DNA of 64,000 nucleotides from an uncultured Candidatus Saccharibacteria bacterium (GTDB lineage: Bacteria > Patescibacteriota > Minisyncoccia > Phycocordibacterales > UBA9973), in NCBI GenBank assembly GCA_964450735.1, contig CAYVDC010000001.1, positions 5,577 through 69,576 of the forward strand, read 5' to 3'. Under the pieces are notes generated by a model. It worked only from the letters and a program-made list of their open reading frames with translations. It was not told the DNA's origin and searched no databases. Below are positions 31,269 to 49,790 of the stretch, piece by piece. Position 1 is the stretch's first letter. Every line of letters begins with the position of its first letter. Both the position numbers and the translations under genes were made by a program.

Positions 31269-31745
31269 ATGAGAGAAGTAGGAAAATGGTGTACATATGC
31301 AGAGACATATAAATCACAAACAGCGTCGAGAAAAGGAATTGATAATGAACCTAATGACGTTCAATTCGCCTCTATTTTAAAAACATATAAAGCTATATAT
31401 GAACCAATTTGTAATGCTTTCAAAAGGAAACTTCCTATTAGTTCGTTTTTTAGATGCAAAAAGCTAAATACAGCCATTGGTGGGGCTAAAACGAGTCAAC
31501 ATATGTTAGGAGAGGCTATTGATATTGATTGTGACAGTGTTACAGGAACAACCAATAAACAATTATTTAATTGGGTGTTAAAAAATTTAGACTTTGACCA
31601 ATTGATTTTAGAAGCTCCTGATAAAAATAATAATCCTTCATGGGTTCATATTTCTTATAAGTCGAAAGAAGCTAATAGACACCAAGTGTTAAGGATGGTG
31701 AGACATAATGGAGTTTCCACGTATCAAAATATTACTTCTTGGTAA
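31269..31745 (+). CDS. endolysin, L-alanyl-D-glutamate peptidase (peptidase M15 family)
   Basis: SQHMLGEAIDID is the SxHxxGxAxD zinc-ligand motif of M15/VanY peptidases. A downstream WVH motif is also present. Confidence 0.65.
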   Translation: MREVGKWCTYAETYKSQTASRKGIDNEPNDVQFASILKTYKAIYEPICNAFKRKLPISSFFRCKKLNTAIGGAKTSQHMLGEAIDIDCDSVTGTTNKQLFNWVLKNLDFDQLILEAPDKNNNPSWVHISYKSKEANRHQVLRMVRHNGVSTYQNITSW

Positions 31746-33092: not shown

Positions 33093-33415
33093 TAGTTTCG
33101 CTCAACCTAAATTCAACCACTTTTGGAAAACAAACATTCCAAGATGTTGTAGATGACAAGTTTTCTCAATTCACACAACCTGTTGTTGTTAAGGAAGAAG
33201 TGTCATTAGAGGAATTTTTCAAAATATTTGATGATGTTTTTTACAACATTCCGAAATATGGAGAAACTAATTCACATCAATTCATTTTTAACAAAGTGAG
33301 TGAGTATTTAGGAGTTCAAAAATCTGACATAAGTGATTTATTAGAAGAAGTAACCACACTTAAAACACAATTAGTAGATAGTTTTAAAGATATTGAAGAA
33401 TTATCCCTTAAATGA
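33089..33415 (+). CDS. hypothetical protein (108 aa)
   Basis: ORF on the dominant strand. Confidence 0.35.
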   Translation: MIVSLNLNSTTFGKQTFQDVVDDKFSQFTQPVVVKEEVSLEEFFKIFDDVFYNIPKYGETNSHQFIFNKVSEYLGVQKSDISDLLEEVTTLKTQLVDSFKDIEELSLK

Positions 33416-36400
33416 AAATAATAAACTTACATAATATAGAACTTGTTCCAAGAATAAACAAAAAGGATTCAAGTTTATTAACTAATAAGTCTGTCTATAA
33501 GAAATTTGGAACAGGGGATGATTTCGCCGAATTGCATTTCTTCACAAAAGATAGTGTTTATGTAAACAGTAATTATAATTACACTTCTTACACTCCAAAT
33601 AAAGAATTGGAAGTGAAGGAAGATGGATTTATTCAATCAATAGATGTTGATTTAGAAAAAGATTGCATAGATAATGGACTTACCAATGGTAGTTTTGTTC
33701 TCTATTATTCATTCTTTAGACATATTTTTAGTAAAATATCAGATGAATTTTTCATTAATACTATTTCTTCTGATAGAACAGAACTGGTTCTTAAAACTAT
33801 AAAACTTTCAGAATCTTCTGTTGCAGAAGTGTTGGATAAGTTGATTTATGATATAAATTCTCAATCATACATCAACAATTTTGTTTTAAATTTTGGAAAA
33901 AATAGAATATATTTAATTACTAATTTCTTTTACAGAATTACAGAAGATGGATTTGAGTTATGTGTAAAATTATATGCTCCTCTTTCTTCTGATGTAGATG
34001 TAAAATCGACATGTAGCTTTTTAGAGGAAATATCTGATTCAAACAAGTTCACCATTGAATTATTTGATGAAATTGAACCCATTCGGGGCATTTCCCTTAG
34101 AGGGGCTAATTTTGATTTAGAGGTGGATGATAAAATATCTATCACCACTGATTATAAGAACAGAAATACACTCATTTCTAATTCATATACAAGTAGTTTA
34201 TACGCTTACATCAATGATAGTTCTATTGATTTAAGTATTGATTATAGTAGCTTTTCTAATTTTATCAATTTCAGTTCAGCTAAACAAAGAATAAATGGTT
34301 TTTTATACAAATTAGAACTTCTCGAATCTTTAGAATCAAATTTATATTACATCAATAATATTTCATCAAGTGTTGCTTATATAAGTGATAATAAACAAGT
34401 GATTGATGAAAAAATAGAAAATATTAAAAATGGATTTGACCATTATGAAAGATTTTTATATAATGAAAGTAGTTCATATTCATTTCCAAAACAATCTAAC
34501 GGAAAGCCATTTTCACTCTCTGCTTCCATTTCAACCACTTGGATTGGTTCTGATATTGAAATAGATGCTAATTATGGAGGAATCATCCTTTCAGCCTCTC
34601 TCTATGATGGAGATAATAGAGGTGGATTGGTATATTCAACCCCCGAATACATTAGAATAGATAGTAGAAATAATGGATATGATGTCTTTATTAACATGAT
34701 AGCCCATCATTTTGATAACTTATGGGTGTATATAAAAGACACGACATCATTATATCAAGGATTTAACAATTATCGAAAAGGAATATCTTCTGATTTAGTT
34801 GTTAAAATGCTTTCTTCTTTTGGAATTAAGTTATATGATGTTAGAGATGACTACGATTTAGTTTCTTCTATTATCGAAACAGATTTAAGTGGAACGAAGG
34901 AATATCCATACACCATTACCAATAATGACCATTTAACAAGAGATATTCTTAAAAAAGAAATATATAAAAGGCTATATCACAATCTCCCCATTCTATTAAA
35001 ATCAAAAGGGTCATATTATGGTACTAAATTGTTATTAAACATATTTGGTATTCCTGATACGATGTTGAGAATATTTGAATATGGGTATTATGATAAAGAT
35101 AATACGACATTAGAAGATAAAAGAAACGTTTTCAATTATGCCCTTCAAATAAGTGGGTCTAATAGAGTGTATTCTAATTTCATTACATCTTCTATTTCAA
35201 GTTTTAGTTCATTTGAATTTAGATTTAAAGAAAGTGATAGTGGAAGTGGAAATTTAGTTACATTTTCTCCAAGTGGAAGCGAAACAGGCAGTTTATCTAT
35301 TCAATATTCCAACCAAACAGGAAGCTATTCAACTGTTACATTCAAATTGAGTGGCAGTTCAAGTAGTTTGAGCGATATTCCAATACATCAAGATAAATGG
35401 TTTAATTTTTTAATTAATAGAAGCACTACCGGTTCAATTCTCACTCATAATTTCTACATTGGTTGGAGGGACGAGTATGACGTTCCTGTTATTAAATCAG
35501 CATCACTCTCAATCACTTCTTCGTATAATTGGGTGAGAAGTAGATATGTATTTGGGCAAACAGGAAGCCTTTCTTCTCCTAATGGAAAGATACAAGAGGT
35601 GAGACTTTGGAGTGAATTACTAAATACATCTTCATTAAAAAATCATATACTAAATCCTCTCTCAATAAGAGGAAATTATACATCTTCATATGATAATGTT
35701 CTTAAAAGAAATTATTTAGGAACAAATGTTTATAAGTACAATCATTATTTAACAAGTTCGATGGATAATTTGAACTTTGTTAGCTATTCAAATGATTATA
35801 ATTATGCTTATAATTACGAAACCATCTATTTAGATAGTCCGAGTGTTGCTGGATTTAAAGTGAATACCACTAAAATAAGTATTGATTCTTCTTCTATTGA
35901 GGACGGAGTGCTTTCTGCTTATATTCCAACAACTAAAAAAGAAGAAATTTGGACAAAATATAATTATAACACTTATCAAATTGGACTTTCACCTTCCGAT
36001 GAAATAGACTTTGATATTATTTCTAAATTGGGATATTTTAATGTAGAAGATATTATTGGCAATCCTGCTTATTATTATTCATCAAGCTATGATGAATTGA
36101 GAGTGGTGTCTAATAACTATTTTGATGAATATATTTCAAAATACAATTACCAAGACTATATTAGAATATTAAAATGGTTTAATAATTCTTTATTTAAAAC
36201 ATTAAAAGACTTTTCTGTTGCTAAATCCACATTAAGTGTTGGATTTATTCAAAAACCACATATTCTTGAAAGAATAAAAATGAATAATGCTTATGTTTCA
36301 TTTGCTCAAAGTGGAATATATAGCATTAATTTAGGGAGAACATTATTTCAATATAACAGCAGTTCTCTCTATTCAAAACTTTCAACTAATAAAGTGGAAG

Positions 36401-38388
36401 CATTTAATGGAAAAATAACGGGGAGTGCTTTACTAATGGGAAAAGAATTTAATATGTTAAATTCCAACCCATATTTAAACACCATTTCACCAAATTACAA
36501 ATTATTCCCTCATAGTAGATGGGACGTATTGCAAAATAATTTCAGAAATAATAGACTTTCTTATTTTAGAACCAATCAAGAAGTGGTGGGAGGAGTTACA
36601 TTAAGTTCTTCTGCACAAATTGATGACTATATTGAATATAATACTTCTTCTAAGAGAGGACGTTATGATGGGTGTAAATTAACAATCAAAACATTAAATG
36701 AATTTACTGTTGATGACGTTTCTTATGGAAAAATCCCTGCTATAAAATCAAATGTTAATAGAGTGGGAGTGTTTACAGAGGTGACGAAGAATGTTCTTCT
36801 CCCCGAACTATCTGAAATTCATGTTAAATGTTTAGTTGATAAGAACGGAACTATCACTTCATTAAATTCAAGAAATAAGAATTGGTTTGAAGTTCAAAAT
36901 ACATTTAAAGACGGAGACAATTTAATTGTTTCATTATTTGATAATCAAAAATATGGAAATCAAAAGAATGTAGATGGTACAAAACCCATTTACAATTCAG
37001 GATATAGATATGCTCCATCATTATATTTTTCAGATGAAGATAGAATTTTAACATTTAATATCAATTCAGCTAAAAATCAAAATAAAACTGTTCAAGAAGC
37101 TAATAATTTCTTTTGGGCTTATGAACCCAAAGCAAGAGATATTAGTAAAAAAGCTGTTTTATATGACCTCTATCCAAGTGTTAAATTAGATGATGGAGGA
37201 AATTATGTAGTGGGAAGTGAGTTAACAAAAGCATTTAGCACCTTCACTATTCCATCAACAGGACAATATACGTTTAATTGCACACTTTCTCTTAAAATAA
37301 GACTTAAAAAGAGAGATAGTTTTGCTAAATATACATTGGCTATTTATAAAAATTCTCCATTAGACACTGCTAACTTGTTACAATCTGAAACATTGGAGTT
37401 TGTTAATAAAAGTACCACCAATTATTTAGATTTTATAACAACTAATATGAATAGTAGTGGATGGAACTATTTATTTAGTTCATATTGGGGACTGAATGAA
37501 AATGCTTCTGTCCAAATCCCATTAAATATTTCTGCTGTTTGGACTAAAAAACAAACAGGAGTGGATGTCGTTGGTTCTTGGACTATTTTCACCAATCAAT
37601 ATGGATATGACACTCCTAAAGTGTATGAAGTGAACGGAAATTACAGAGATGTCATTGGATATGATTCCACAAAAACATTAGATTTTAGACTTCCATTCGA
37701 TGCCACCACCAATATTAATTACAACTTAGGGAGTGATTTTAAAAAAGGAGAGAAAGTCTATTTCATCCTTTCAGAAGAAGGACTTAGTGAAACTGAAATA
37801 AACGCTGTTCAAATTACGAATGGGGAAGTGAATGTTAATATCAACAGTAAGATATTAGACCCTGAAACAAAAAATTTGATAAAATCTATGAGTGGGAATT
37901 CTATTGTTATCAATGGAAATCTTTCATATCATTCTCTTATTGAAAGTTTATTTAATCCTGATAGTTCCACTTTATATAAAAAGTATGGAGATGTTGATGT
38001 TAATTTTTCTTTACAAGTGGGGGACTATATAAGATTTTTTAATAAAAATACAAATGAATATAATGTTCATCAAATAACAAGTGTAACGAAAGCAACAGGA
38101 GTGAGTGCTTATATTGATTTATATTTTCCTGAAATCACTTTAGGTGTCACCCCTGCATTATTGGATAGTTTGACACCTGATAGTTATTTAGAAGTGCTGT
38201 TTTACAGGAAGGTTCAAGATGAAACCACTGTGATGTTGAATTATAATATCAAAGATGTGAACACTTCTTATGGAATATTAATTCCACATAACATTTCAGA
38301 AGAAACGATGAATAATATTGACGTGATAATAAAAGAACTTAAAACTAAATTAATCAACGAAAACAATATTAACATAACACCAAATTAA
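33412..38388 (+). CDS. very large baseplate/fibre structural protein (1658 aa; gp7-position)
   Basis: Uninterrupted 4.9-kb ORF downstream of the gp6-like gene. N/S/Y-rich composition. Confidence 0.5.
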   Translation: MKIINLHNIELVPRINKKDSSLLTNKSVYKKFGTGDDFAELHFFTKDSVYVNSNYNYTSYTPNKELEVKEDGFIQSIDVDLEKDCIDNGLTNGSFVLYYSFFRHIFSKISDEFFINTISSDRTELVLKTIKLSESSVAEVLDKLIYDINSQSYINNFVLNFGKNRIYLITNFFYRITEDGFELCVKLYAPLSSDVDVKSTCSFLEEISDSNKFTIELFDEIEPIRGISLRGANFDLEVDDKISITTDYKNRNTLISNSYTSSLYAYINDSSIDLSIDYSSFSNFINFSSAKQRINGFLYKLELLESLESNLYYINNISSSVAYISDNKQVIDEKIENIKNGFDHYERFLYNESSSYSFPKQSNGKPFSLSASISTTWIGSDIEIDANYGGIILSASLYDGDNRGGLVYSTPEYIRIDSRNNGYDVFINMIAHHFDNLWVYIKDTTSLYQGFNNYRKGISSDLVVKMLSSFGIKLYDVRDDYDLVSSIIETDLSGTKEYPYTITNNDHLTRDILKKEIYKRLYHNLPILLKSKGSYYGTKLLLNIFGIPDTMLRIFEYGYYDKDNTTLEDKRNVFNYALQISGSNRVYSNFITSSISSFSSFEFRFKESDSGSGNLVTFSPSGSETGSLSIQYSNQTGSYSTVTFKLSGSSSSLSDIPIHQDKWFNFLINRSTTGSILTHNFYIGWRDEYDVPVIKSASLSITSSYNWVRSRYVFGQTGSLSSPNGKIQEVRLWSELLNTSSLKNHILNPLSIRGNYTSSYDNVLKRNYLGTNVYKYNHYLTSSMDNLNFVSYSNDYNYAYNYETIYLDSPSVAGFKVNTTKISIDSSSIEDGVLSAYIPTTKKEEIWTKYNYNTYQIGLSPSDEIDFDIISKLGYFNVEDIIGNPAYYYSSSYDELRVVSNNYFDEYISKYNYQDYIRILKWFNNSLFKTLKDFSVAKSTLSVGFIQKPHILERIKMNNAYVSFAQSGIYSINLGRTLFQYNSSSLYSKLSTNKVEAFNGKITGSALLMGKEFNMLNSNPYLNTISPNYKLFPHSRWDVLQNNFRNNRLSYFRTNQEVVGGVTLSSSAQIDDYIEYNTSSKRGRYDGCKLTIKTLNEFTVDDVSYGKIPAIKSNVNRVGVFTEVTKNVLLPELSEIHVKCLVDKNGTITSLNSRNKNWFEVQNTFKDGDNLIVSLFDNQKYGNQKNVDGTKPIYNSGYRYAPSLYFSDEDRILTFNINSAKNQNKTVQEANNFFWAYEPKARDISKKAVLYDLYPSVKLDDGGNYVVGSELTKAFSTFTIPSTGQYTFNCTLSLKIRLKKRDSFAKYTLAIYKNSPLDTANLLQSETLEFVNKSTTNYLDFITTNMNSSGWNYLFSSYWGLNENASVQIPLNISAVWTKKQTGVDVVGSWTIFTNQYGYDTPKVYEVNGNYRDVIGYDSTKTLDFRLPFDATTNINYNLGSDFKKGEKVYFILSEEGLSETEINAVQITNGEVNVNINSKILDPETKNLIKSMSGNSIVINGNLSYHSLIESLFNPDSSTLYKKYGDVDVNFSLQVGDYIRFFNKNTNEYNVHQITSVTKATGVSAYIDLYFPEITLGVTPALLDSLTPDSYLEVLFYRKVQDETTVMLNYNIKDVNTSYGILIPHNISEETMNNIDVIIKELKTKLINENNINITPN

Positions 38389-39075: not shown

Positions 39076-40080
39076 GTGAGTTACTTAAAATTAACAGAAA
39101 AGGATTCAGTTGTCAGTTCAGAAAAAGTAGTGAGACCTGCTTGGTATGGCGAAACCACCACACTTTCAACGTTCTACACTCCTAATTTGAATGAATCTAA
39201 TTACTATATCAACGTATATAAAGAATCACCAATAGCTAACCCATATACGCAACCACAATTTTCAGTTACTTATGGACATGTTTCGGGGAGTGGGTCTATT
39301 GGCTATTTACAAGATAATACTTATTATACAAGAATAATCTATGGACAATATCGTTCACTTATTCTTCAAAATGAAAATTCTTTATTTGATTTTGGTGGAA
39401 GTAGTGGTTCAAGTGATGATATTTTAGTTTTAAGTGTCGCTCGTAATTGTTTCAAAGAATCTTTAAAACCTTCTGGGTTTAATATTAAATTGAAAAACGG
39501 TTCAACTGTTTTAAATTTAACAGATAATTCAAAAGACCTTTCTTCTCCAAAATATTTAGCTTCCAATCGTTATTATGATATTGTAAGTGGAAGTGATGGA
39601 AATATGGCTTTTGGACAAGCTATTTTGAACACAAGTAGGGGTAGTTATGGATTTTTCTTTCCTGATTTGGGAACTATTGTTTTTAATCCAAGAGCATTAT
39701 CTTTAACAAGTGGAAGTAAAGGAGTGGGACTTAGTATTGCAAGCGGAACTACAACCAATTCAGATAATAACGCTAAACGTTTATATGATTTGATAGTTTC
39801 GGGGCAATCCTTCAAACTTTCATCAGAAGAAACTGTCACTTCTCGCTATTTTTTCATTACAGCACCAAGTTCAGAATTCAATTACACCACTAATCCATCT
39901 GTTATAGATGATAATGGAAATTTGATTTATAGTACATTAGTTGACAGCCCCGAAACATTCATCACCACCATTGGTCTTTACAATGATAGTAATGAATTAT
40001 TAGGAGTTGCCAAATTATCCTCGCCAATAAAAAAGAATTTTATTCAACAATTATTATTTACAGTTAAATTAAGTTGGTAA
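39076..40080 (+). CDS. baseplate structural protein (334 aa). Its C-terminal module is duplicated in the 49482-49790 ORF.
   Basis: C-terminal ...ETFITTIGLYNDSNELLGVAKLSSPI... is repeated almost verbatim in the ORF at 49482-49790. The size equals T4 gp8, but this is a positional guess. Confidence 0.4.
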   Translation: MSYLKLTEKDSVVSSEKVVRPAWYGETTTLSTFYTPNLNESNYYINVYKESPIANPYTQPQFSVTYGHVSGSGSIGYLQDNTYYTRIIYGQYRSLILQNENSLFDFGGSSGSSDDILVLSVARNCFKESLKPSGFNIKLKNGSTVLNLTDNSKDLSSPKYLASNRYYDIVSGSDGNMAFGQAILNTSRGSYGFFFPDLGTIVFNPRALSLTSGSKGVGLSIASGTTTNSDNNAKRLYDLIVSGQSFKLSSEETVTSRYFFITAPSSEFNYTTNPSVIDDNGNLIYSTLVDSPETFITTIGLYNDSNELLGVAKLSSPIKKNFIQQLLFTVKLSW

Positions 40081-40081
40081 C

Positions 40082-43000
40082 TTGTCAGTTTATAAAAGAT
40101 TACACAAATCGGATGTCATCACATCCCCATATGAAGCCAATAAACTTTTCAATCTTTCCTATAACACTTTTAGCAGAATATGTTCAAATGTAAGTGGGAG
40201 TGATGATGGTGTAAAAATTTATGTAGGAACTAAACTAACAGGGAGTTTCACTCCCGATTTAGAGCCAACAAGCGAGGGGGAATATCAAAGACTTATTTAT
40301 GACAGTATCAATCATCTTTATTATCAACAATATAATGAAGAATTAGATAATGATATAAATAAACAATCTTTATATTATGTTTCTTCTTCTCAATTTAGAG
40401 CCACTTCTTCATATTTTGATTATAATAACAATGACAGGATTGTAAAATACTTTCCCACTGCATCTTATTCTACTATTCGTGTTATTTCGATTCCTAAAAA
40501 TCTTTATGGAAATGAAATAGTTCCTACCAATTTTGTTCTATCATCATCTGCTTATGATGTAATTGATGATGGATATGGAAATTTAATAGATACAAACACA
40601 GATGAATATATTGGAAATATATTTTATAAACAGGGGATAGCCGTTATCACTAATGAATTATATCAATGTATGTTTCCAATTCCACCTGTTGCGGTGGCAA
40701 ATGCATTTAGATTTAATGAATTAACATCGAATAAAGTATTCAACCTTCTAAGTAATGATGTTACTTATTGTGGAGCAACAGTAAATACTTCTTCAATTGA
40801 ATTTTTTGAAACAAGTAGTGGATTTGTTTATTCAACAACAGGTTCAAATTTCTTATTTTTGAATTCTTCTGTTGGAAATTATTCATCAAGTTATTTCTTT
40901 AAAGATAGTAATGGACTTTGTAGCAATCCATCAAAAATAAACATTGAAGTATATAGAGATTGTGATTTTTCTGTAAATGTTACACAAATAGCATATACAG
41001 GAAGCACTTCACCATGTACTTCTACTGTGTGTGATATAGATTTTGTAAAACTCCCTGTAAGTAGTTCATGTACTTCCACATTATATCCAATAGATTTTTC
41101 TGCTAACGTTGCTTTATTAACGTCAAGTAGGGCTAATGGAATACATGATTTCATGCTTACATTCAATGCTACTGAAAATGCAACATGGAGTATAAGTAAA
41201 AATGGAGGAGCGACGTACACTACATTGTTAAGTGGAAGTTCTATCATTTCAGGTAGTACAAGTTTATTAGCAACAAGTAGTAGTTTCAAAAATGATTTTT
41301 CATTTTTATTAAGAGCTACAAATGCAAGTAGTTCTTTTGTGGAATATCATTTTGAAATAAACCCATTATTAACAAATAGTTATACATTTACACAAAAGAA
41401 GAAGTATGACTATTATAGCGTTCCTTCCGCAAGTTGTTACCCAAATATATATAAAGTGCTAAGTAGTGGATGTAACATTTCATCATCAACTTACACTTAT
41501 ACGGGAGAGATGTCAGGAGTGGCATTGACAGAGAATAGACTTGCTGTGATTGGTTGTAGGGGAAGTATAAAGGTGACAGCCACCACTACTTGTTGCGGAA
41601 CGTGTGAAAAAATAATTTATTTTAATGGGGACTGTTATGGAAATTCATTATGTAAAGCTGATGAATTAAAATTAGAAGTTTTTCCAACAAACACCCCTAA
41701 TAATTATTTAGTTTTCGCTAATTTTGAGAATGGATACCTTTCCGCTTATTCAAATTGGAGTACAAGTGGCAGTGGAATAAGTATAACAAGCGATAATGAC
41801 GGATTATGGGTAGAAGTAACAATAGCAAGTGGTAGTGCAGACACTTATTTGACATTTAATTGTTCAACTTGGTGTGAAAATCTTTCAAAAACAGTGAGAT
41901 TTAGCTATAATCCGCTTACAACCACAACAACGCTTCCCATATCAACAACAACTTCCACCACATCAGACCCAAATCATGCTGTTGAAGGAGTGGTGGTTTT
42001 ATACGCCGATTTAGAACTTACAAAAGATGCGGAAACAACTTCTCCTTACAGTGGACAAACAATAAGAGTGAATCTTTCTGTATTTAACAGAGGCCCAGCA
42101 GCAGCCACAAGTGTTGTGGTGAAAGATGAACTTCCAACAGGAATGACATATGTTTCTGCTATTTCAAGTGGAACAAATCTAATTTCAGGGTCTGTAATAG
42201 GAAATATTCCCATCATCTATCCCAACCAATATGATACAATTTCATTCTATGCTTCAATAAGTGGAAGCGTTGGCGAGGAAATTTGTAATTTTGCACAAAT
42301 AATGTCCGCAAATGAAATTGATACAGATTCTACACATGGTTCTGTTGATGATGCGGATGATGAAGCATATTTATGTTTAAGAGTGATAGGTACAACCACC
42401 ACTTCAACAACAACATCTACAACGATAAGTGGAAGTGGTGGAACGACAACAACGACAACAACATTAGCGCCTTGTGCCCCAATAATAAGACCATATCCCT
42501 ATACAAATTATATTTGTGACTGTGGATTACAATTCTTTTCAACGGGATACCCAAAAGGTAGAATAATAGTGAATGCTATTAATCAATTAACAGGAACATT
42601 TGAAGGACTTGAATATTCTTTCAGTGGAGATTTTGATGAAAATTACGATGATGAAAATATGAGCGAATGTTTAGCGGACGGTTTATATACTGTTTGGGTG
42701 AGAGTGAAAGATAGACCTGATTGTAAATCATCTATCACCGTTCAAGTTAATTGCAGCCCCCAATCAGAAAATGCAGGAACTACCACTACTACATTGTTTA
42801 ACAGTGGAAGTTGGGCATTTTTGGACTCAGTGTGTGTAGATGTTTCTTCTGCCACCACTACGTCTGCTAACAGTTTAGAATTCACTTATCAAACTGGATG
42901 TAACAATGCAGGTTTATTTGTTGCAGTAACAAGTGTGACGGGGGCATCTGGTCAAGTTCAATATAGTATTGATGGGGGAGCTTATCAAGGAAATTCATTA

Positions 43001-44671
43001 TTTTCAAGTCTTTCTGATGGAACTCACACCATCACTATTAAAGATGGAGCAGGAAATACTAAAAGTAAGTCATTCACAAGAGGATGTGGAAGCAATCAAA
43101 CCACCACTACCACCACTGCTACTCCTGGAACTGTTACCACCACCACTAATTTGAATTCAAACATTTTAGAACCTCTAACGCTTAATTATTCGTTAGAATC
43201 TAATTATAACAGTTCATACAATCCAATAGCTAAATTTGGAACATTTACAACCAATGGACAGCCATTTATTTGGGACGTTGGTTATAATACGTTAGGATAT
43301 ACTTACGGAAGCAGTGGATTAAATGTCACTACAATTGGATTTACACATGCTACCAATAGAAGTGCAGGAAGTATAACAGGAATATTAACACGGGATAAAT
43401 TAGCATTGGAGGTAAATGCTGATGCTGATGTATTTAGTCAAACAGATGTTAATTACAGACGAGATTTCACATCTTCTTGTGTGGGATATGATGAATCCTC
43501 TGGGAATGCTTTCTATAATGATGACACTGCTATTTCAAGTCATTTGAATTACATGAATGGAGTGGATGTTGATATTATGTCTTTTGATGTTGAATTAGTC
43601 AATTTAAGAGAATCAAGAGATGCGATTATTCAGAAAAGAAATTGTTTACAAGGAGGAAAATATAAAACTTCTGAAAATGGTGGAACAACTCTTCCATATA
43701 AAAATTGGACAGATGAAATGTTCTATCAACAATATTTGAAAGCATATGCTGATTATTGGGTGAGATTTATTAATATATTGAAATCTAAAAATGCCACTCC
43801 TGCAACAGCTAAAATGAGTTGGTATGGAACAGGTGCTAATCAATCTTATGCAAGTTATCCATATAGCGATGAATCAGCAGGACTCACCACAACACCTGCT
43901 CCACAATGGAATATTTATGGAAATGCAGGATATAGAGTGAGAGATGCTATCACTTATCAAGGAGCAGGTCAAATATATTGTGGAGAACCTTATGGAATAA
44001 GCGATAGTACAATGTTAGCAAGTATGCTTTCTAATTATGAAACACAAAGGAAAGCGGATGGTGTTTCTTCATGGAAAAGAAGTATCACTCACATTAAACC
44101 ATTCAGAGAAAATTACACAGCAGGAAATGCAGATGGAGTGACACCTTGTACAAACTGTGCATGGGCTTCTTCTACAAAACAAATTTCACAAGGAACTGTA
44201 TTTATTCCATTCTTCACAGGAAATGGTGCTTGGATATGGGGAACATACGGAAGGGCTGAGTTTGGTCAATCTATTGACCACATGGTAGCAGCAAGGAAAA
44301 TTTGTTCTTATATCAATCCAATTATTGATGGAAATGAATCATATATAATTCCTGAAATTTCTTTAGATGGTGTTAGATGGTGGGGAAATTCAAATGATTG
44401 GAATGCTGCAACTGATATAAGCAATCCTGATAGATATACAGCTTGGACTATTATTCAAAATAGTAGTTTGAGAAAAGAATTCCCATTAGTAAGAGCTATT
44501 AAAAATGGAAATTCAATAGCTATTTGTGCTACAAGAATTAATGGATTGGAAAATGGAACTATTTCTTTTCAAATAAGAATTCCAAAATCAAATGGAACAT
44601 ATTATGTTGAAAGAATCACCTTAACAGGAAGAGAATGGTTTATTGGTAGAGTTTGGAACATAAACGCATAA
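40082..44671 (+). CDS. giant tail fibre / receptor-binding protein (1529 aa) with a DUF11-like domain, Thr-rich linkers, SprB-type repeats and a C-terminal putative glycoside hydrolase-like domain
   Basis: N-terminal ...GNIFYKQGIAVITNE... is fibre-anchor-like. LELTKDAETTSPYSGQTIRVNLSVFNRGPAAATSVVVKDELPTGMTYV is DUF11-like. TTTT linker runs. Cys-capped modules such as LSDGTHTITIKDGAGNTKSKSFTRGC. Confidence 0.55.
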   Translation: MSVYKRLHKSDVITSPYEANKLFNLSYNTFSRICSNVSGSDDGVKIYVGTKLTGSFTPDLEPTSEGEYQRLIYDSINHLYYQQYNEELDNDINKQSLYYVSSSQFRATSSYFDYNNNDRIVKYFPTASYSTIRVISIPKNLYGNEIVPTNFVLSSSAYDVIDDGYGNLIDTNTDEYIGNIFYKQGIAVITNELYQCMFPIPPVAVANAFRFNELTSNKVFNLLSNDVTYCGATVNTSSIEFFETSSGFVYSTTGSNFLFLNSSVGNYSSSYFFKDSNGLCSNPSKINIEVYRDCDFSVNVTQIAYTGSTSPCTSTVCDIDFVKLPVSSSCTSTLYPIDFSANVALLTSSRANGIHDFMLTFNATENATWSISKNGGATYTTLLSGSSIISGSTSLLATSSSFKNDFSFLLRATNASSSFVEYHFEINPLLTNSYTFTQKKKYDYYSVPSASCYPNIYKVLSSGCNISSSTYTYTGEMSGVALTENRLAVIGCRGSIKVTATTTCCGTCEKIIYFNGDCYGNSLCKADELKLEVFPTNTPNNYLVFANFENGYLSAYSNWSTSGSGISITSDNDGLWVEVTIASGSADTYLTFNCSTWCENLSKTVRFSYNPLTTTTTLPISTTTSTTSDPNHAVEGVVVLYADLELTKDAETTSPYSGQTIRVNLSVFNRGPAAATSVVVKDELPTGMTYVSAISSGTNLISGSVIGNIPIIYPNQYDTISFYASISGSVGEEICNFAQIMSANEIDTDSTHGSVDDADDEAYLCLRVIGTTTTSTTTSTTISGSGGTTTTTTTLAPCAPIIRPYPYTNYICDCGLQFFSTGYPKGRIIVNAINQLTGTFEGLEYSFSGDFDENYDDENMSECLADGLYTVWVRVKDRPDCKSSITVQVNCSPQSENAGTTTTTLFNSGSWAFLDSVCVDVSSATTTSANSLEFTYQTGCNNAGLFVAVTSVTGASGQVQYSIDGGAYQGNSLFSSLSDGTHTITIKDGAGNTKSKSFTRGCGSNQTTTTTTATPGTVTTTTNLNSNILEPLTLNYSLESNYNSSYNPIAKFGTFTTNGQPFIWDVGYNTLGYTYGSSGLNVTTIGFTHATNRSAGSITGILTRDKLALEVNADADVFSQTDVNYRRDFTSSCVGYDESSGNAFYNDDTAISSHLNYMNGVDVDIMSFDVELVNLRESRDAIIQKRNCLQGGKYKTSENGGTTLPYKNWTDEMFYQQYLKAYADYWVRFINILKSKNATPATAKMSWYGTGANQSYASYPYSDESAGLTTTPAPQWNIYGNAGYRVRDAITYQGAGQIYCGEPYGISDSTMLASMLSNYETQRKADGVSSWKRSITHIKPFRENYTAGNADGVTPCTNCAWASSTKQISQGTVFIPFFTGNGAWIWGTYGRAEFGQSIDHMVAARKICSYINPIIDGNESYIIPEISLDGVRWWGNSNDWNAATDISNPDRYTAWTIIQNSSLRKEFPLVRAIKNGNSIAICATRINGLENGTISFQIRIPKSNGTYYVERITLTGREWFIGRVWNINA

Positions 44672-44682
44672 TTTAAGAAACA

Positions 44683-46989
44683 GTGAGTGTTAAAAAATAT
44701 ATAAGAGTTAGGAATGAACAAGGATTTGATAGATTTTACGAATGTAGTAGTAATCTCCTATCTGATTCTTCATGTTTTAATGAATTCAAAGCATCCCAAA
44801 CCCCCACTTTATTAACACTTCTTCCGAATGGAGTGGCAGTGGCATGTCCACAACTCACCACTACATCAACAAGCACGACATCTACGACAAGTACGTCCAC
44901 CACTACAACACAACCATACACAGGAAGTTCAACAAGTACGACATCTACGACAACAGCCGCATATACGGGCAGCAGTACGTCCACTACGACATCAACAAGC
45001 ACTTCTACAAGTACAACCACAACACTTATTCCATTAGATTTTGATTTTAAAACAGATTGTAATGATAATACGGGGCTTGCTGTGATTATTACAGTGGTAA
45101 CAGGTAGTTATAATGGAGTGCAGTATAGAATGGATGGGGGTGCTTTTCAAAGTAATCCATTATTTGTTGGATTGGCTGATGGGACTCACACCATTACAGT
45201 GGTGGATGGATTGGGAAGAATAAAAGATAAAACATTCACTCGTACTTGTGCAATCACCACATCAACAAGCACTTCTACAAGTTCAACAAGTACATCAACA
45301 AGTAGTACATCTACGAGTACAACCTTAACGTCCACTACTTCTACAACGTCAACAAGTACAACCACGACACTCCCATATACAGGAAGTTCAACAAGTACAT
45401 CAACGTCAACAAGTACGAGTACAAGTACGTCAACAAGCACTTCCACCACCACAAGACCCCCCGTTACACTTCCTTCAAGTTCAAATAACTTGATTGGAAT
45501 GTCAAACGTAGATGTAGTGTCAAAAGGAGCAGATAATATATTAATTTACATGATTCAAGAATCCACCACTCCTGTTTCTTTAGCAGGAAATGGTCAAATC
45601 ATGTCTATTAATGGAGAAGATGGTGGAACAAGATTTATAAATGGAACAACAATTCCCACTGTATATGGAGTCGCAGGTTATTCCCCATCCATAGCACCAT
45701 ATGATTTCAGAAGATTTGGTTTTAATTTAGCAAGAATTAGAACTGAAAATTCAGGAAGCATTGATGTTAAATGGAAAGTGTATGGTAAGGTGTTAGACCC
45801 AACGGGATATAATAATTTTTGGATGGTGACGAACCTATTCAGAGATGTTTTAATGACTACAAGAGATTGTAATGCTGTTGAATGTAATGGGATGGATTGG
45901 AATAGAAATCCATCCTATTCAGGTACACCTTCTTATTACCCCGAAGCACTTGGAGCAGGTTCTTATTATTGTAATTCAACAGATTCATTTGTTTATTTAG
46001 GATATTTGAGATATACCTATAATAGCATTACATTTGCAGAAAACTTCACATTTACTCCAGACGCATCTGTTATTCAAAATACATTGAATCAAGAATCAGT
46101 TTCAACAATGAATTTCTGTAATTTTGATTCAACTCAATTTGAAGCAGATGATAGTGAAAAAGTAAGAAAAACATTTATTCACACAGGGGGTAATTCCACC
46201 ATATTTTATAAATTTGATTCCACTTTAGCCTCTAATTTTCAAGTGATAAGTGATAGTGGTAACATCCTATCACAAACAACTTGTGTAAGTGGAACTCATT
46301 ATGGATATTTCAATGTGTCAAATGGAGATGCTATCACATTATATGTAAATGGAGCATGTTCAACACCAAATACAAGTTGGACATTGGATATGGGATGTTG
46401 TGATATTACAGCGATAATGAATGTAACATCTGATTGTACAGAAACACATGGAAAAGTTTGTATTAAAGCATCTTCTACACTTATTCCTTCAAGTAAATTT
46501 GAATATTTAGTAGATGGAGTTGTTCAAACTTCATTAGGTTCATGTGCAGGAGGAGTATTAGTTGATGCTTTATTAGGAACACGTTCTATTTCTGTTAGAC
46601 ATAAAGAAATTACAACATGTGCTAAAACAGAAATAAAAATTGTAAACTGTGTAGCTGAAAATAACATCACAACATCTACAACAACAGCTTCTCCATCCTC
46701 ATGTTCTGTTAGCTTTTCGGAAGCAAGACATGACACGGATTTAACATGTAATTCTTTACAAGGATATTTATATGTACATGTGGATTCAAGTAATACAAGT
46801 GGATTGATTCAATTTAGAGTGTTAGTTGGTAGTGCTGCCGTGATAGATTGGACTACTCCTCAATTAGAAGATGAAGCATTGTTTTTATTAAATCATGGAA
46901 CTTATAGAGTTCAAGTGAGAGATGCAAATGAAACTTCTTGTACAGCAACCGTAAATAATGTAGTTTTAAGTTATACTAATTGTGTTTAA
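44683..46989 (+). CDS. tail fibre protein (768 aa) with long S/T repeat linkers and SprB-type repeat modules
   Basis: LADGTHTITVVDGLGRIKDKTFTRTC and LNHGTYRVQVRDANETSCTATV match the SprB-repeat signature G-T-Y-x-V-x-V-x-D-x-N-x-C. Tandem PYTGSSTSTSTS repeats. Confidence 0.55.
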   Translation: MSVKKYIRVRNEQGFDRFYECSSNLLSDSSCFNEFKASQTPTLLTLLPNGVAVACPQLTTTSTSTTSTTSTSTTTTQPYTGSSTSTTSTTTAAYTGSSTSTTTSTSTSTSTTTTLIPLDFDFKTDCNDNTGLAVIITVVTGSYNGVQYRMDGGAFQSNPLFVGLADGTHTITVVDGLGRIKDKTFTRTCAITTSTSTSTSSTSTSTSSTSTSTTLTSTTSTTSTSTTTTLPYTGSSTSTSTSTSTSTSTSTSTSTTTRPPVTLPSSSNNLIGMSNVDVVSKGADNILIYMIQESTTPVSLAGNGQIMSINGEDGGTRFINGTTIPTVYGVAGYSPSIAPYDFRRFGFNLARIRTENSGSIDVKWKVYGKVLDPTGYNNFWMVTNLFRDVLMTTRDCNAVECNGMDWNRNPSYSGTPSYYPEALGAGSYYCNSTDSFVYLGYLRYTYNSITFAENFTFTPDASVIQNTLNQESVSTMNFCNFDSTQFEADDSEKVRKTFIHTGGNSTIFYKFDSTLASNFQVISDSGNILSQTTCVSGTHYGYFNVSNGDAITLYVNGACSTPNTSWTLDMGCCDITAIMNVTSDCTETHGKVCIKASSTLIPSSKFEYLVDGVVQTSLGSCAGGVLVDALLGTRSISVRHKEITTCAKTEIKIVNCVAENNITTSTTTASPSSCSVSFSEARHDTDLTCNSLQGYLYVHVDSSNTSGLIQFRVLVGSAAVIDWTTPQLEDEALFLLNHGTYRVQVRDANETSCTATVNNVVLSYTNCV

Positions 46990-47700
46990 ATGCCTTATAA
47001 ATTTAGAATAGCAGATAGTGGTAGTAGCAATGTCAATTATTATAACATTTATTTAGATGATTATAATAATAAATTAGCTTCAAATGTTCTTCTCCCCTAT
47101 GATGTGGTGGTGAATGATTGGAAGCCAAGTTTTCTATTTATTGTTGAGAATAATATGTTCACTTGTGGTGCTGTTAAGAATATTTTGATTAACAATCTCA
47201 CTACAACTACAAGCACTCAACCTGTTTTAACATTAACAACCAATTCTTATACACCACCAAGTACATCTACCACTACACTCCCTGCAACAACAACAAATCC
47301 ACCAACAACAACACAAACAACCCCATCGCCGTCAACCACAACTTCAACGAGTTCTACAACAAGTTCTACAACACAAGCACCAAATGTAAATGTTTATTTA
47401 ACAGCACATTTTGACGATGATGCAGGACTTATTGTAATAGATGCCTATTTAAGAAATAATAATGGAACTCCATATATCAGTTTAATAGATTTTTATATAG
47501 AAGGAACTCTTTATTATAGAAATTCTATTGGAGGATTTACATCTTCAACACCATTTTCATTATATATACCCATTGGATATTCTACCAATCACACAGTGTT
47601 TGCCATAGCTAATGTTGAATCATTAGAATATGCGTGTATAAGTTCTGTGACACCAAGTAGCAGTGGGGGAACTACATTCACAATTATATCATCATGTTAA
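46990..47700 (+). CDS. fibre-associated protein (236 aa) with a Thr/Pro-rich linker
   Basis: TTTSTQPVLTLTTNSYTPPSTSTTTLPATTTNPPTTTQTTPSPSTTTSTSSTTSSTTQ linker between two globular segments. Confidence 0.4.
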   Translation: MPYKFRIADSGSSNVNYYNIYLDDYNNKLASNVLLPYDVVVNDWKPSFLFIVENNMFTCGAVKNILINNLTTTTSTQPVLTLTTNSYTPPSTSTTTLPATTTNPPTTTQTTPSPSTTTSTSSTTSSTTQAPNVNVYLTAHFDDDAGLIVIDAYLRNNNGTPYISLIDFYIEGTLYYRNSIGGFTSSTPFSLYIPIGYSTNHTVFAIANVESLEYACISSVTPSSSGGTTFTIISSC

Positions 47701-47701
47701 T

Positions 47702-49495
47702 ATGTTATACCTTTCAGCACAACCCGACAATGACTATTTTTTATGGCAACTCCAAGTGCAATTCAATAATTTTGAAAGAATGGGAATTCCCCTTTCAAAT
47801 GTTTATGCGTTAGTTGCTCATAGAGGAGAAGAATCTACTCCACAATTTATACAATATGCAAATGAAACAAAAGCTAATATTCTTTTTTATAAGGATGAAA
47901 TTCCTGATAGAAAATATATTCCTGCTATTCGTCCCCACATTATAAAACAATTTTTTAAAGCCCATCCCGAATTAGTAGATGAATATTTCTTCTACCATGA
48001 TAGTGATATATTATTTACAAAACTTCCTAATTGGGAGGAATTGATGGATGGAAATTGGAAGGTGAGTGATACGATTGGATATATTGGATATGAATACATC
48101 ATAGAAAAAGGAACTAATGTTCTTTTAGATATGTGTGATATTATTAAAATACCACCAAAAGTGGTAAGAAATAATCAAAAGTTTTCAGGGGGATGTCAAT
48201 ATCTATTAACAGGAACGAATAGTGAATTTTGGGATAAAGTGGAAAAGGATTGTGAAGCTATTTATACATCACTAAGAGATAGAGTGGAAGAATATGGAAT
48301 TAGTTGGAGTAGAAGTTCAGGAAGACCTCCAAGTGAATATCATCCTATACAAGAATGGTGTAGTGATATGTGGTGCGTTTTATGGAACGCGTGGCTTAAA
48401 GGATATAGAACAGATGTCGTAAAAGATTTGTCATTTTCATGGGCTACTAACACGATAGATGAACTTTCCAACCACAATATATTTCATAATGCAGGTGTGG
48501 TGGATGAACAAAAAGGTCATTTATTTTTTAAAGGAGATTATATTACAAGACTTCCCTATCACTTTGATTTAAGTTTTGTTGACAGAAATTATTGTAGCTA
48601 CTTCTACGTTCAAGAAATAGAGGACACTAAAATCAATTTGGGGCTTTCTCCTGCACGCAAAGTGAAGAAGGATAGAAACTATACCAACCCCAAAGTTAGT
48701 TGCGTGATGACCACATATGGACGTTTTAACACGGTGGAAAGAAGCATTGGGTTTTGGAGAAAACAAGATTATAAAAATAAGGAACTTATTATACTAAATA
48801 CAGCCCCCACTCCGTTAACACTTTCAGTAGAGTTGGAGGATTGTGGAATAAAAATTATTAACCAATCCTGTCAAACGGGAACTAATATTCCATATTCTAA
48901 TGTTGGGAAAATAAGAGAGGATGCTTTGCGCTACGCAACAGGTGATATTTATATATGTTGGGATGATGATGATATGTTTCTTCCCTTTCATATAAAATAT
49001 GGTGTTAAACATCTATTGGAATGTAAAAAAGATGCTTGGATGCCCAAAAGAAGCATTTTTACAGGGAATGGTGGAGACAGCTTTATGTATGCACAAAACG
49101 CATTTGAAGCCTCTGTTTTAGTTTGGATAGATGCTATTTGGAGATATGGATTTTTATATGAAAATGGAAGTGAACATTTATCATGGAGACGTGGATTGGT
49201 GGACGATGACCAATTGGATGAAAATTTTGATGTCAATCCATTAGAATCATATGTCTATATTTGGGGAGAAAAAGAATCGAGCCATAAACAATCAGGAGAT
49301 ATAGATAATCCAAATAATTTTGAAAATCATAAATCAAATTCAACTGATTTTGGTAATCGTCATTTAGGAATATACGATGAAAGAAAATTGGAAGAATGGT
49401 ATATGAAAATTGTTGATTTTGTTGGACATGCTTATTTAAACAAACATATTCAACCTTATTTAAAATATAACACCGTATATAGTGATAATTCATAG
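47702..49495 (+). CDS. two-domain glycosyltransferase with a GT2-like C-terminal domain. The probable start is Met at 47702 rather than the listed 47663.
   Basis: KVSCVMTTYGRFNTVERSIGFWRKQDYKNKELIILN is GT2 motif-like. YICWDDDDMF is DxD-like. The N-domain has YHDSDILF, also DxD-like. The upstream gene ends at 47700. Confidence 0.5.
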   Translation: MLYLSAQPDNDYFLWQLQVQFNNFERMGIPLSNVYALVAHRGEESTPQFIQYANETKANILFYKDEIPDRKYIPAIRPHIIKQFFKAHPELVDEYFFYHDSDILFTKLPNWEELMDGNWKVSDTIGYIGYEYIIEKGTNVLLDMCDIIKIPPKVVRNNQKFSGGCQYLLTGTNSEFWDKVEKDCEAIYTSLRDRVEEYGISWSRSSGRPPSEYHPIQEWCSDMWCVLWNAWLKGYRTDVVKDLSFSWATNTIDELSNHNIFHNAGVVDEQKGHLFFKGDYITRLPYHFDLSFVDRNYCSYFYVQEIEDTKINLGLSPARKVKKDRNYTNPKVSCVMTTYGRFNTVERSIGFWRKQDYKNKELIILNTAPTPLTLSVELEDCGIKIINQSCQTGTNIPYSNVGKIREDALRYATGDIYICWDDDDMFLPFHIKYGVKHLLECKKDAWMPKRSIFTGNGGDSFMYAQNAFEASVLVWIDAIWRYGFLYENGSEHLSWRRGLVDDDQLDENFDVNPLESYVYIWGEKESSHKQSGDIDNPNNFENHKSNSTDFGNRHLGIYDERKLEEWYMKIVDFVGHAYLNKHIQPYLKYNTVYSDNS

Positions 49496-49790
49496 TGGAA
49501 GTTTTGGTATTTCGTTTTTGAATAGGCATGTTATTTATGAGAACATCATTAAAATAACTGTTAAAGAGAAAGATTTTAATATTTCTTACAATAGGAGTTT
49601 ATTACAAGATTCTTCTAATTTAAGTGGAAGTGTTAAACCATTTGTGACAGGGAGTGACTTCGTTCCCTATGCCACCACCATTGGAATTTATAATGACAAT
49701 CAGGATTTATTAATGGTGGCTAAACTTTCTCAACCAATCCCCATGTCTAATTACACGGATATGAATTTTTTGATTAAATTTGATAATTAA
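49482..49790 (+). CDS. truncated paralogue of the C-terminal module of the 39076-40080 protein (102 aa)
   Basis: ...VPYATTIGIYNDNQDLLMVAKLSQPIP... parallels ...ETFITTIGLYNDSNELLGVAKLSSPI... in the 39076-40080 protein. Confidence 0.3.
   Translation: MIIHSGSFGISFLNRHVIYENIIKITVKEKDFNISYNRSLLQDSSNLSGSVKPFVTGSDFVPYATTIGIYNDNQDLLMVAKLSQPIPMSNYTDMNFLIKFDN

Follow-up and report, generated by a model that had tools for sequence, protein, structure and literature searches.

Does a phage glycosyltransferase whose gene directly follows a set of tail fibre genes glycosylate those fibres? The question was raised by a 64,000-nt stretch of DNA (CAYVDC010000001.1, positions 5,577-69,576 of the forward strand; GCA_964450735.1), referred to as the window; all coordinates below are window coordinates. 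By sequence comparison, region 40082-49790 is the distal tail fibre (host-recognition) cassette of a T4-like, immuto-related myophage with a Bacteroidota host. Three fibre genes and a gene for a two-domain glycosyltransferase (GT) are encoded there. An earlier examination of the letters alone (the sequence-only reading) had delimited these four open reading frames (ORFs), had described long pure Thr/Ser linkers in the fibres and had proposed that the linkers are glycosylated. The ORFs and their coordinates were confirmed, the linkers were present, and their glycosylation gained good comparative support: the N-terminal domain of the GT (N-domain, family phrog_4417) is tightly coupled to virion proteins with Ser/Thr tracts. 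We put the probability that the adjacent GT glycosylates the Thr/Ser spacers of the fibres at about 0.65.

All four genes lie on the plus strand. p1529 (40082-44671; 1529 aa, 36 Cys) was assigned as a modular tail fibre or receptor-binding protein in the tail fibre slot of immuto, and p768 (44683-46989; 768 aa, 32% Ser+Thr, 22 Cys) as a second modular fibre protein. p236 (46990-47700; 236 aa) is a third, small protein of the cassette and consists of an N-terminal domain, a Thr/Ser/Pro tract (aa 91-131; 47260-47382) and a C-terminal domain. Thr/Ser linkers 1 and 2 of p1529 are encoded at 41918-41965 (aa 613-628, TTTTTLPISTTTSTTS) and 42383-42463 (aa 768-794). In p768, tract 1 (44848-45033; aa 56-117) contains PYTGSSTST repeats, and tract 2 (45244-45462; aa 188-260) has short DNA tandem repeats, for which Tandem Repeats Finder (TRF) gave periods of 12 and 21 at 45259-45304. 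Pure Thr/Ser tracts measured 16 and 27 aa in p1529, 62, 73 and 14 aa in p768, and 12 and 26 aa in p236. They were confined to these three of the 83 non-overlapping ORFs of the window, directly upstream of the GT gene. Two Val-rich minus-strand ORFs (44736-45020 and 45186-45452) were rejected as genes; they are frame artefacts, because they lie opposite the ACN/TCN codon repeats for Thr and Ser.

Coupling of the glycosyltransferase to Thr/Ser tracts

Loci were sampled from IMG/VR, 80 of them anchored on the GT and 80 on p334. The latter protein is encoded by the conserved gene directly 5' of the fibre cassette (39076-40080, plus strand), is a homologue of gp106 of Flavobacterium phage vB_FspM_immuto and served as synteny anchor; the p334-anchored set represents this phage group in the same genomic slot. 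A tract ORF was present in 11/11 GT-positive loci of this set versus 1/69 GT-negative ones, and the sole GT-negative locus with a tract ends 1.3 kb downstream. For loci with at least 9 kb of downstream sequence, the counts were 9/9 and 0/34, respectively (Fisher p=1.8e-9). Immuto itself, a cultured, GT-negative relative, showed no tracts in its 30-kb tail region.

Loci encoding the N-domain gave a corresponding picture. A tract ORF was found in 50 of 56, at a median gap of 21 bp, and lay upstream on the same strand in 45. Of 23 N-domain clusters formed at 70% identity, 19 showed the pattern. Homology grouping after masking gave 20 unrelated groups of tract proteins. The ORF directly upstream of the N-domain gene carried a tract in 42 of 54 loci (and in 15 of 20 N-domain clusters), compared with a background of 2.2% of the other ORFs in N-domain loci and 0.6% in loci without N-domain (p=4e-47). 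Loci with the GT2-type C-domain alone had tracts in 5 of 34 cases, which identifies the N-domain as the coupled part. Of the six N-domain loci without a tract ORF, four showed linkers rich in Thr or Pro/Thr, though below the threshold, in the ORF next upstream; the remaining two had a linker that was weak or lay further upstream.

N-domain loci span T4-like, crAss-like and >200-kb phage contigs. Full-length homologues of the GT were each located near a Ser/Thr-tract protein in the syntenic contigs L002 and L004, in the crAss-like contigs L006, L008 and L009, where they lay among tail-module and giant-protein genes, and in the 245-kb contig L011. In cultured Enterococcus, Clostridium and Lactobacillus phages, a stand-alone N-domain GT gene was found inside the structural operon, with poly-Thr on tail-tube, head or head-associated proteins. 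The major tail protein of Enterococcus phage VPE25 ends ...TTTDTTTTTTTTTTAGK. In Clostridium phage phiCTP1, poly-Thr ends occur on a 132-aa "major head protein" and on the tail tube protein, whose gene is followed by the GT gene. The major head and major tail proteins of Lactobacillus phage iLp84 end ...TTTTTTTSK, and the 125-aa gene product encoded before the GT contains 41% Ser/Thr. In Chryseobacterium phage MA9V-3, two unannotated pure tract proteins are encoded at most 2.4 kb upstream of the N-domain gene, one of them adjacent to it.

GT relatives (N-domain, GT2 domain, or both) were encoded in 128 viral-contig stretches, and a tblastn search of 50,697 phage records (E<=1e-5) matched 77 cultured phage records. 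Glycosylated phage fibres, which had been called a rare feature, would probably be less so. The three inferences of the sequence-only reading, namely modules shared with host surface proteins, a Flavobacteriia-type host and glycosylated linkers, held up in the computational tests, and the interpretation is sharpened in that the N-domain is the tract-coupled enzyme, the phenomenon appears widespread rather than rare, and the glycoside-hydrolase-like tip of p1529, described below, is new.

Proposed mechanism and alternative explanations

The GT was taken to start at ATG 47702 (597 aa), because homologues support that start; the ORF with a GTG start has 610 aa. Its N-domain (47702-48661, plus strand; aa 1-~320) is putatively GT-A-like and matched phrog_4417 ("unknown function") at E=4.4e-67 over profile positions 1-292 of 293. 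The C-domain (48689-49495, plus strand; aa ~330-597) is of GT2/GT-A type and matched PF00535 at residues 346-469 of the 610-aa ORF (333-456 of the 597-aa protein) with E=1.4e-8 and 35.3 bits (cutoff 23.3). An HDSD motif in the N-domain (D100/D102; 47999-48007) and a WDDDD motif in the C-domain (D421-424; 48962-48973) were invariant in 26 homologues. For the C-domain, a profile search returned SpsA (1h7l, E=3e-9), Foldseek returned SpsA, TarS and 6p61 at root-mean-square deviations (rmsd) of 3-6 Å, and weak NCBIfam matches were to exopolysaccharide and colanic-acid GTs. No sequence relatives of the N-domain were found among solved GT structures.

An AlphaFold2 (AF2) model of the GT reached a predicted local distance difference test score (pLDDT) of 89 and placed D100/D102 directly after strand 96-98 of a beta-alpha-beta domain. 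In Foldseek searches, enzymes with two GT-A domains were best (K4CP 2z86, LARGE1, PmHS2 8vh8, COLGALT1/LH3), with E down to 3e-13 vs ~1e-8 for single GT2 domains, in full-length alignments of ~600-720 columns. Two GTs of serine-rich-repeat adhesins, GlyE (5gvv) and GalT1/CgT (5hea), were among the structural and sequence matches. From the full-length alignments and the motif position, rather than from a domain-level search, the N-domain is predicted to have a GT-A fold. The two-domain DxD transferase reported directly after the fibre genes was thus borne out by the GT2 match, the invariant acidic motifs and the two-GT-A fold matches. The nearest relatives in a viral structure library were uncharacterised stand-alone N-domains, e.g. 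Orf49 of Lactobacillus phage LP65. In other loci, fusions join the N-domain to further GT or methyltransferase domains (PF02709, PF10111, PF03414, PF05050, PF13578).

In the proposed mechanism, the three fibre proteins are built like bacterial fibrillar adhesins, and an N-terminal part that serves for attachment is conserved in each. p1529 and p768 also carry immunoglobulin (Ig)-like stalk modules homologous to Bacteroidota surface proteins, in total one CLIPPER/DUF11 and four SprB-type, with pure Thr/Ser spacers between the folded parts, and p1529 ends in a rare predicted TIM-barrel head with a 4/7 Glu pair. The GT, presumably a soluble bifunctional enzyme of two GT-A domains and encoded by the last cassette gene, would O-glycosylate these spacers in the cytoplasm, either ahead of fibre assembly or while it proceeds: the N-domain, as initiating transferase, would attach a first sugar to Ser/Thr, to which the C-terminal GT2 domain would join a second one. 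Glycosylated spacers would become stiff, protease-resistant, mucin-like rods. The ORFs, domains, homologies, folds, conserved motifs and genomic coupling were observed; that the tracts are the acceptor, how the two GT domains share the work and what the glycan does is inferred.

We also lean slightly towards the broader view that the phrog_4417-type domain marks a widespread family of phage virion-protein O-glycosyltransferases which recognise poly-Thr/Ser tracts and are used by T4-like, crAss-like and >200-kb Bacteroidota phages and by Firmicutes siphophages. Here, such an enzyme would yield mucin-like, glycan-stiffened fibres made of host-adhesin modules with a new TIM-barrel depolymerase tip. 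Full-text literature searches brought up no account of this GT family, of a tie between it and Ser/Thr tracts, or of fibre glycosylation in phages of Bacteroidota.

Several points weigh against glycosylation of the spacers by this enzyme. Its best structural matches are polysaccharide polymerases (K4CP, PmHS2) and the matriglycan polymerase LARGE1, folds that make a glycan rather than a protein acceptor possible. The window encodes other GTs and methyltransferases, and Thr/Ser linkers occur unglycosylated in many proteins. The expectation that the tract-bearing fibre of a crAss-like phage (P0125) should adjoin a GT was not confirmed: its contig encodes two tract proteins and no homologue of the GT in 22 of 27 kb, so that the implication runs from GT to tract and not necessarily from tract to GT. 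Twelve of the 54 upstream ORFs were below the strict tract threshold. The N-domain loci are moreover related by descent, a dependence that clustering and the diversity of tract proteins reduce and do not remove.

The GT might instead build or modify a polysaccharide (host capsule, lipopolysaccharide, exopolysaccharide, or a glycan used elsewhere) and travel with the fibres as a co-exchanged host-range determinant. That its closest folds are bifunctional polysaccharide polymerases would fit such a role, as would the weak NCBIfam matches of the C-domain, and the glycoside-hydrolase-like fibre tip would make the cassette as a whole polysaccharide-centred. However, the position of the N-domain gene next to Ser/Thr-tract proteins of 20 unrelated families would be left unexplained, as would its place among head and tail-tube genes with poly-Thr product ends in siphophages of Gram-positive hosts. 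Neither a transmembrane segment nor lipid-carrier machinery (flippase, polymerase) was found in the vicinity of the GT. The phage is of lytic type and T4-like, and the GT gene belongs to the late structural operon. We consider this explanation unlikely.

Glycosylation of the tracts by other enzymes (the left-arm GT1 or GT25 proteins, or those of the host), or transfer of sugar-1-phosphate by the N-domain (Stealth-like phosphoglycosylation), appears improbable. The coupling statistics single out the N-domain, and its weak match to Stealth_CR2 (E=0.04) lies far below threshold. Bacteroidota possess a general protein O-glycosylation system; it would, however, act in the periplasm, whereas the fibres presumably fold in the cytoplasm. 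Candidate enzymes are encoded on the minus strand of the left arm, namely a Methyltransf_24 + GT25 fusion (7381-8556) and two GT1 (GT-B) proteins (14039-15328 and 15325-16758, together 14039-16758); a small methyltransferase (12467-12985) is encoded on the same strand. A GT25 gene neighbours that of the full-length GT in crAss-like loci, and P0023/P0024 carry a fusion of Methyltransf_24 with the N-domain. Because of these arrangements in other phages, the left-arm GTs are likelier to be elaborators of the glycan than replacements of the GT. The left-arm sugar genes may act in building further on the same glycan or in methylating it; alternatively, their targets may be DNA or polysaccharides.

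We know of no two-domain GT-A enzyme of this kind that acts as a DNA glycosyltransferase, and the ThyA of the window (19682-20767, minus strand; 361 aa, ~95 residues longer than the Pfam model owing to an insertion) is by Pfam an ordinary thymidylate synthase, not evidently a hydroxymethylase. We rate as very improbable the alternative in which the tracts are plain flexible spacers without modification, the substrate of the GT is phage DNA or some other non-protein molecule, and the association goes back to shared ancestry of a mobile cassette. In its favour, DNA is often glucosylated by phage GTs (PMC12619734). Low-complexity linkers of Thr/Ser are widespread, and a crAss-like fibre bears tracts without a nearby GT. 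Against it, the association extends over phage lineages and tract proteins that are unrelated, and over two bacterial phyla. DNA glycosylation had been considered as a role of the GT on account of the left-arm GTs and ThyA, and was rated unlikely given the tract coupling.

Glycosylation of the fibre spacers by the adjacent GT, if true, would make the phrog_4417-like domain a sequence marker of glycosylated virions in at least two bacterial phyla and several phage lineages. Its presence would predict from sequence which virions are glycosylated and on which residues, and among the phages so marked would be crAss-like phages of the gut as well as Enterococcus and Staphylococcus phages of therapeutic type. 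To our knowledge, virion glycosylation has so far been demonstrated experimentally only for a few mycobacteriophages, in which the particles are shielded from antibodies. The reading would bear on phage immunogenicity, stability and mucus adherence, and a soluble GT with a simple poly-Thr/Ser tag would form a minimal orthogonal pair for glyco-engineering.

A chromosomal relative was observed in Chitinophaga polysaccharea (L010, GCA_902150045.1; 2044-12876), where the N-domain is fused to a galactosyltransferase-related domain. Genes for a C39-peptidase ABC exporter and for HlyD-like and LanC-like products share its cluster together with small ORFs, one of which ends ...GTADETTTVPGPPAILP. The cluster looks like one for a ribosomally synthesised and post-translationally modified peptide (RiPP) or bacteriocin, which suggests that the N-domain family may also glycosylate secreted peptides.

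Fibre modules, distal domain and neighbouring genes

None of the cassette proteins matched a tail-fibre family in PHROG or Pfam. Megablast and tblastn searches of cultured phages gave essentially no homologues of the fibres; tblastn against phages showed only a 26% match of the N-terminus, in an uncultured phage. In the relative L004, the N-terminal ~750 aa of p1529 are kept (30% identity) and the last ~525 aa are replaced. The p768 orthologue in L002 is 72-81% identical, and the module at the end of p768 has a homologue at the C-terminus of the L004 protein L004_1182. The p236 N-terminus is 44% identical to that of L004_448 (448 aa; L004 8634-9980). A conserved N-terminus with exchangeable distal parts is the pattern expected of receptor-binding fibres. 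L004_448 combines its p236-like N-terminus with Thr tracts, PPPPPPPPP, DUF5977 repeats and an SprB-like module, a mix which implies that modules shuffle freely among the fibre genes of this phage group.

The DUF11-like domain reported for p1529 was verified (42008-42334, plus strand; aa 643-751). PF01345 matched with E=2.5e-15 and 57.2 bits (cutoff 24.6) over profile positions 1-106 of 114, and TIGR01451 matched with E=5e-10. DUF11 has been renamed CLIPPER, a CnaA-like stalk domain of fibrillar adhesins in which an isopeptide bond is often present, some DUF11 domains being devoid of it (PMC12617251). By eye only, Lys in LELTK, Asp in VKDELP and Asn in CNFAQ were picked as candidate isopeptide residues of p1529. 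A phmmer search of the domain against PDB sequences, including 9IFR, gave no alignments. If true, it would be notable for a phage fibre to hold such a bond within one molecule.

For the SprB-type modules, the Pfam model PF13573 gave no match, neither with whole fibre proteins at E<=1 nor with isolated modules at E<=10; only generic Ig-like families (Big_13, BiPBP_C, FlgD_ig) appeared, all sub-threshold. PF13573 spans the first 37 residues of a ~76-aa unit (in the Bacteroidota protein L012, the stretch 143-178 ends '...SLNGGAF'). The signature strings quoted in the sequence-only reading fall in the second half of the unit (L-A-A-G-T-Y-x-I-T-V-R-D-x-N-G-C), outside the model. The silence of PF13573 is explained by degeneracy of the Pfam-modelled 'GGtaPY' half in the phage. 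As this model covers only half of the repeat unit, it was set aside as deciding test. A hidden Markov model (HMM) of the full unit was built from 73 units of four Pfam-verified Bacteroidota SprB proteins, seeded on the Pfam-defined stretch, and was run on all 186 stop-to-stop segments of the window. Outside the modules, every ORF scored E>0.7.

Two modules were clearly of SprB type: module B of p1529 (42854-43090; aa 925-1003), bracketed by Cys940 and Cys1002, with an independent E-value (i-E) of 4e-12 at 940-999, and module C of p768 (45034-45252; aa 118-190) with i-E 4e-11 at 125-181. They are 56% identical to each other (E~1e-19). Module A of p1529 (42557-42760; aa 826-893; i-E 5e-4, 13.7 bits), conserved in L004_1182, and module E at the C-terminus of p768 (46702-46986; aa 674-768; i-E 3.6e-5 at 707-761), 38% identical to the C-terminus of L004_1182, were divergent members. 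Module D of p768 (46396-46650; aa 572-656) is Cys-rich and SprB-like in pattern only; its i-E of 7.2 at 581-650 was non-significant. All five are encoded on the plus strand. By the full-unit HMM, four phage modules are thus SprB-type units, two of them clearly so, and of the "at least five" modules of the sequence-only reading four stood and the fifth did not. That reading had also named the lack of an SprB hit at HMM level as evidence against itself; the short Pfam model indeed gave no hit, a result overturned only by the full-unit HMM.

A search of 5.8 billion proteins with the module alignment gave no matches, a 75-aa module being too short for significance there. A pattern scan for modules B and C in one genome per species (185,579 species) gave 15 confirmed loci, all in Bacteroidota and at 35-57% identity (Rufibacter, Chitinophaga, Flavobacterium, Algibacter, Aestuariivivens and several metagenome-assembled genomes, MAGs). 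Four of six host proteins tested were Pfam-verified SprB-repeat proteins with 4 to 24 repeat stretches each (E down to 1e-155). Module C shares with genuine SprB proteins the same secondary match, a weak one to BiPBP_C of Pfam. Sorting domains of the type IX secretion system (T9SS) were present in two of the four SprB-repeat homologues, Por_Secre_tail in L012 and CHU_C in L022; neither family matched the phage fibre proteins in Pfam. The sequence comparisons support stalk modules common to phage fibres and Bacteroidota surface adhesins, as had been claimed earlier.

Compared with the SprB-repeat adhesins of Bacteroidota (gliding-motility/T9SS, PF13573), the phage modules B and C are 35-57% identical to their units and follow the same pattern, Cys...G...Y-x-(I/L)DGG-x-(F/Y)Q...L-x-x-G-x-(H/Y)-x-(I/V)-x-V-x-D. 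The adhesins hold tandem arrays of 10-40 units, whereas the phage units are single and flanked by Thr/Ser spacers. Unlike the adhesins, the phage fibres have no signal peptide and no T9SS C-terminal domain. The closest module matches in bacterial genomes (53-57% identity) were found on Chitinophaga/Chitinophagaceae MAG contigs, L013 (1279-3552) and L014. These proteins are missed by the Pfam SprB model as the phage fibres are, and that of L013 matched no family at all; instead of host adhesins, they may represent fibre genes of prophages or phage contigs that ended up in MAG bins.

The distal domain of p1529 (43169-44668, plus strand; aa ~1030-1529) is predicted to be a glycoside hydrolase or depolymerase head, formed by a (beta/alpha)8 barrel and a C-terminal beta-sandwich. 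The last ~525 residues of p1529 had only 10 relatives among 1.84e9 representative proteins. Residues 1004-1529 matched no Pfam, NCBIfam or PHROG family, and the relatives likewise matched no glycoside hydrolase (GH) family. A word-indexed protein search was silent on this domain and missed even a 76%-identical orthologue (P0121), which reflects a limit of the method and not absence. In the crAss-like relative P0125, a T/S tract, an SprB-like module and a second T/S tract precede a distal domain of p1529 type, and another relative, the Bacteroidota protein P0130, carries a T9SS sorting domain.

An AF2 model built from the relatives (pLDDT 85.4, predicted TM-score 0.87) showed an eight-stranded alpha/beta barrel followed by a beta-sandwich, with barrel strands at 59-62, 86-88, 104-109, 162-166, 241-244, 289-297, 331-339 and 379-383 (domain numbering). 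The best Foldseek match in the PDB was the GH66 dextranase 5axg (E=5e-6), followed by GH5, GH30, GH140 and GH164. The nearly invariant E168 and E340 are placed just past strands 4 (162-166) and 7 (331-339), as are the catalytic residues in the 4/7 (clan GH-A) superfamily. E168 and E340 correspond to the candidate catalytic residues Glu1171 in "SFDVE" (43592-43594) and Glu1343 in "KPFRENY" (44108-44110), both on the plus strand. On the basis of the model, the distal domain is most likely a polysaccharide-binding or depolymerising head. A carbohydrate-active C-terminal domain, considered in the sequence-only reading, was accordingly found as a predicted glycoside-hydrolase-like fold and in no Pfam family.

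Like clan GH-A and GH66 enzymes, the predicted tip has a (beta/alpha)8 barrel with conserved Glu past strands 4 and 7, followed by a beta-sandwich; unlike the described families, it has no Pfam or CAZy-type sequence match, which by sequence places it outside every described GH family. Its position at the fibre end is comparable to that of phage tail-spike depolymerases. Characterised phage depolymerases are mostly beta-helix trimers, not TIM barrels. The fibres would thus combine adhesin-type stalk modules (SprB-type in Bacteroidota, CLIPPER more widely) with a rare tip that is a candidate new depolymerase family.

The rightward late operon consists of a baseplate wedge gene (29447-31264, upstream of the fibre cassette), endolysin-like genes, genes for proteins of 1658, 217 and 334 aa, the three fibre genes and the GT gene, and continues 3' of the GT with a 102-aa ORF, DNA primase, terminase and a T4-type portal. 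p334 aligned with immuto at 40% identity over 100% of the query (tblastn) and had 232 relatives in viral contigs. In immuto, its homologue gp106 precedes annotated tail fibre and tail spike genes, followed by primase. The portal is 55% identical to that of immuto, and gene order is conserved. These identities and the shared order indicate that the fibre cassette occupies the host-recognition slot of an immuto-like T4-related myophage. The host is probably a member of the Flavobacteriia, in agreement with the earlier proposal and with a window G+C content of ~30%.

A small ORF, p102 (49482-49790, plus strand), closes the cassette before the DNA primase gene and is conserved in L002 and L003. 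By blastp (33% identity, E=1e-8), it is a paralogue of p334 residues 239-332, the C-terminal third of that protein, both having the motif TTIG(L/I)YND..(L)L.VAKLS.PI, so that the fibre/GT cassette is bracketed by related sequences. This could be the trace of an insertion or duplication of the cassette, or p102 could be a second small adaptor protein. The 1658-aa protein (33412-38388, plus strand) has 6 Cys, no Pfam or PHROG family and, unlike the downstream fibres, no Ser/Thr tracts. Its first ~960 residues are 32% identical to immuto gp109, relatives occur in Microcystis phage Mel-JY01, and it is probably a large baseplate or fibre-proximal protein. Two endolysin/peptidase-like genes within the baseplate module (26082-27638 and 31269-31745, plus strand) probably encode tail-associated cell-wall hydrolases. 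On the minus-strand arm, genes for a papain-family (C1) cysteine peptidase (18877-19623) and an IMPDH/GMP-reductase-like protein (21811-22758) are grouped with that for thymidylate synthase.

Comparison with known glycosylation systems

According to Freeman et al. 2023, as reported in PMC12363180, PMC12619734 and PMC10877033, the mycobacteriophages Che8, Corndog and Myrna glycosylate their capsid proteins and their tail-tube proteins at the C-termini with their own GTs. As far as these accounts go, the systems (Che8 gp110, Corndog gp38) are like the one proposed here in that phage-encoded GTs act on virion proteins in the cytoplasm, and the hallmark of phage virion glycosylation, a phage GT together with Ser/Thr-rich candidate acceptor segments on virion proteins, is present. 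The mycobacteriophage acceptors described there are C-terminal tails of capsid and tail-tube proteins, and the same is presumed for the cultured N-domain phages of Gram-positive hosts. In this Bacteroidota myophage, in contrast, long spacers (up to 73 aa) inside the tail fibres are presumed to be the acceptors. Unlike the mycobacteriophage enzymes, the GT is a fused two-domain protein. No mycobacteriophage was among the 77 phage records matched by tblastn or among the top 50 viral fold matches of the GT.

K4 chondroitin polymerase of E. coli, heparosan synthase 2 of Pasteurella, human LARGE1 and COLGALT1/LH3 have two GT-A domains in tandem, both equipped with an acidic metal/nucleotide-sugar motif, an architecture that is also predicted for the phage GT. 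Identity to these enzymes is 9-13%, and domain orientation differs (rmsd ~20 Å). K4CP-type enzymes polymerise repeating disaccharides, whereas the phage GT gave no indication of a polymerase. In dystroglycan, the mucin-like domain carries a glycan that LARGE1 extends.

In the serine-rich-repeat adhesins of Gram-positive cocci, dedicated GTs encoded beside the adhesin gene O-glycosylate long Ser/Thr-rich repeats in the cytoplasm. These systems include bifunctional two-domain GTs (GalT1 = DUF1792+GT2), and the GT2 domain of GalT1 (5hea) and GlyE (5gvv) match the phage GT, with generic GT-A similarity at 10-17% identity. Unlike the phage system, they are bacterial and use accessory Sec export, and their initiating GtfA/B is of GT-B type. 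By analogy, the proposed mechanism would most resemble the cytoplasmic glycosylation of serine-rich-repeat adhesins, and the architecture of the enzyme that of the bifunctional transferases with two GT-A domains.

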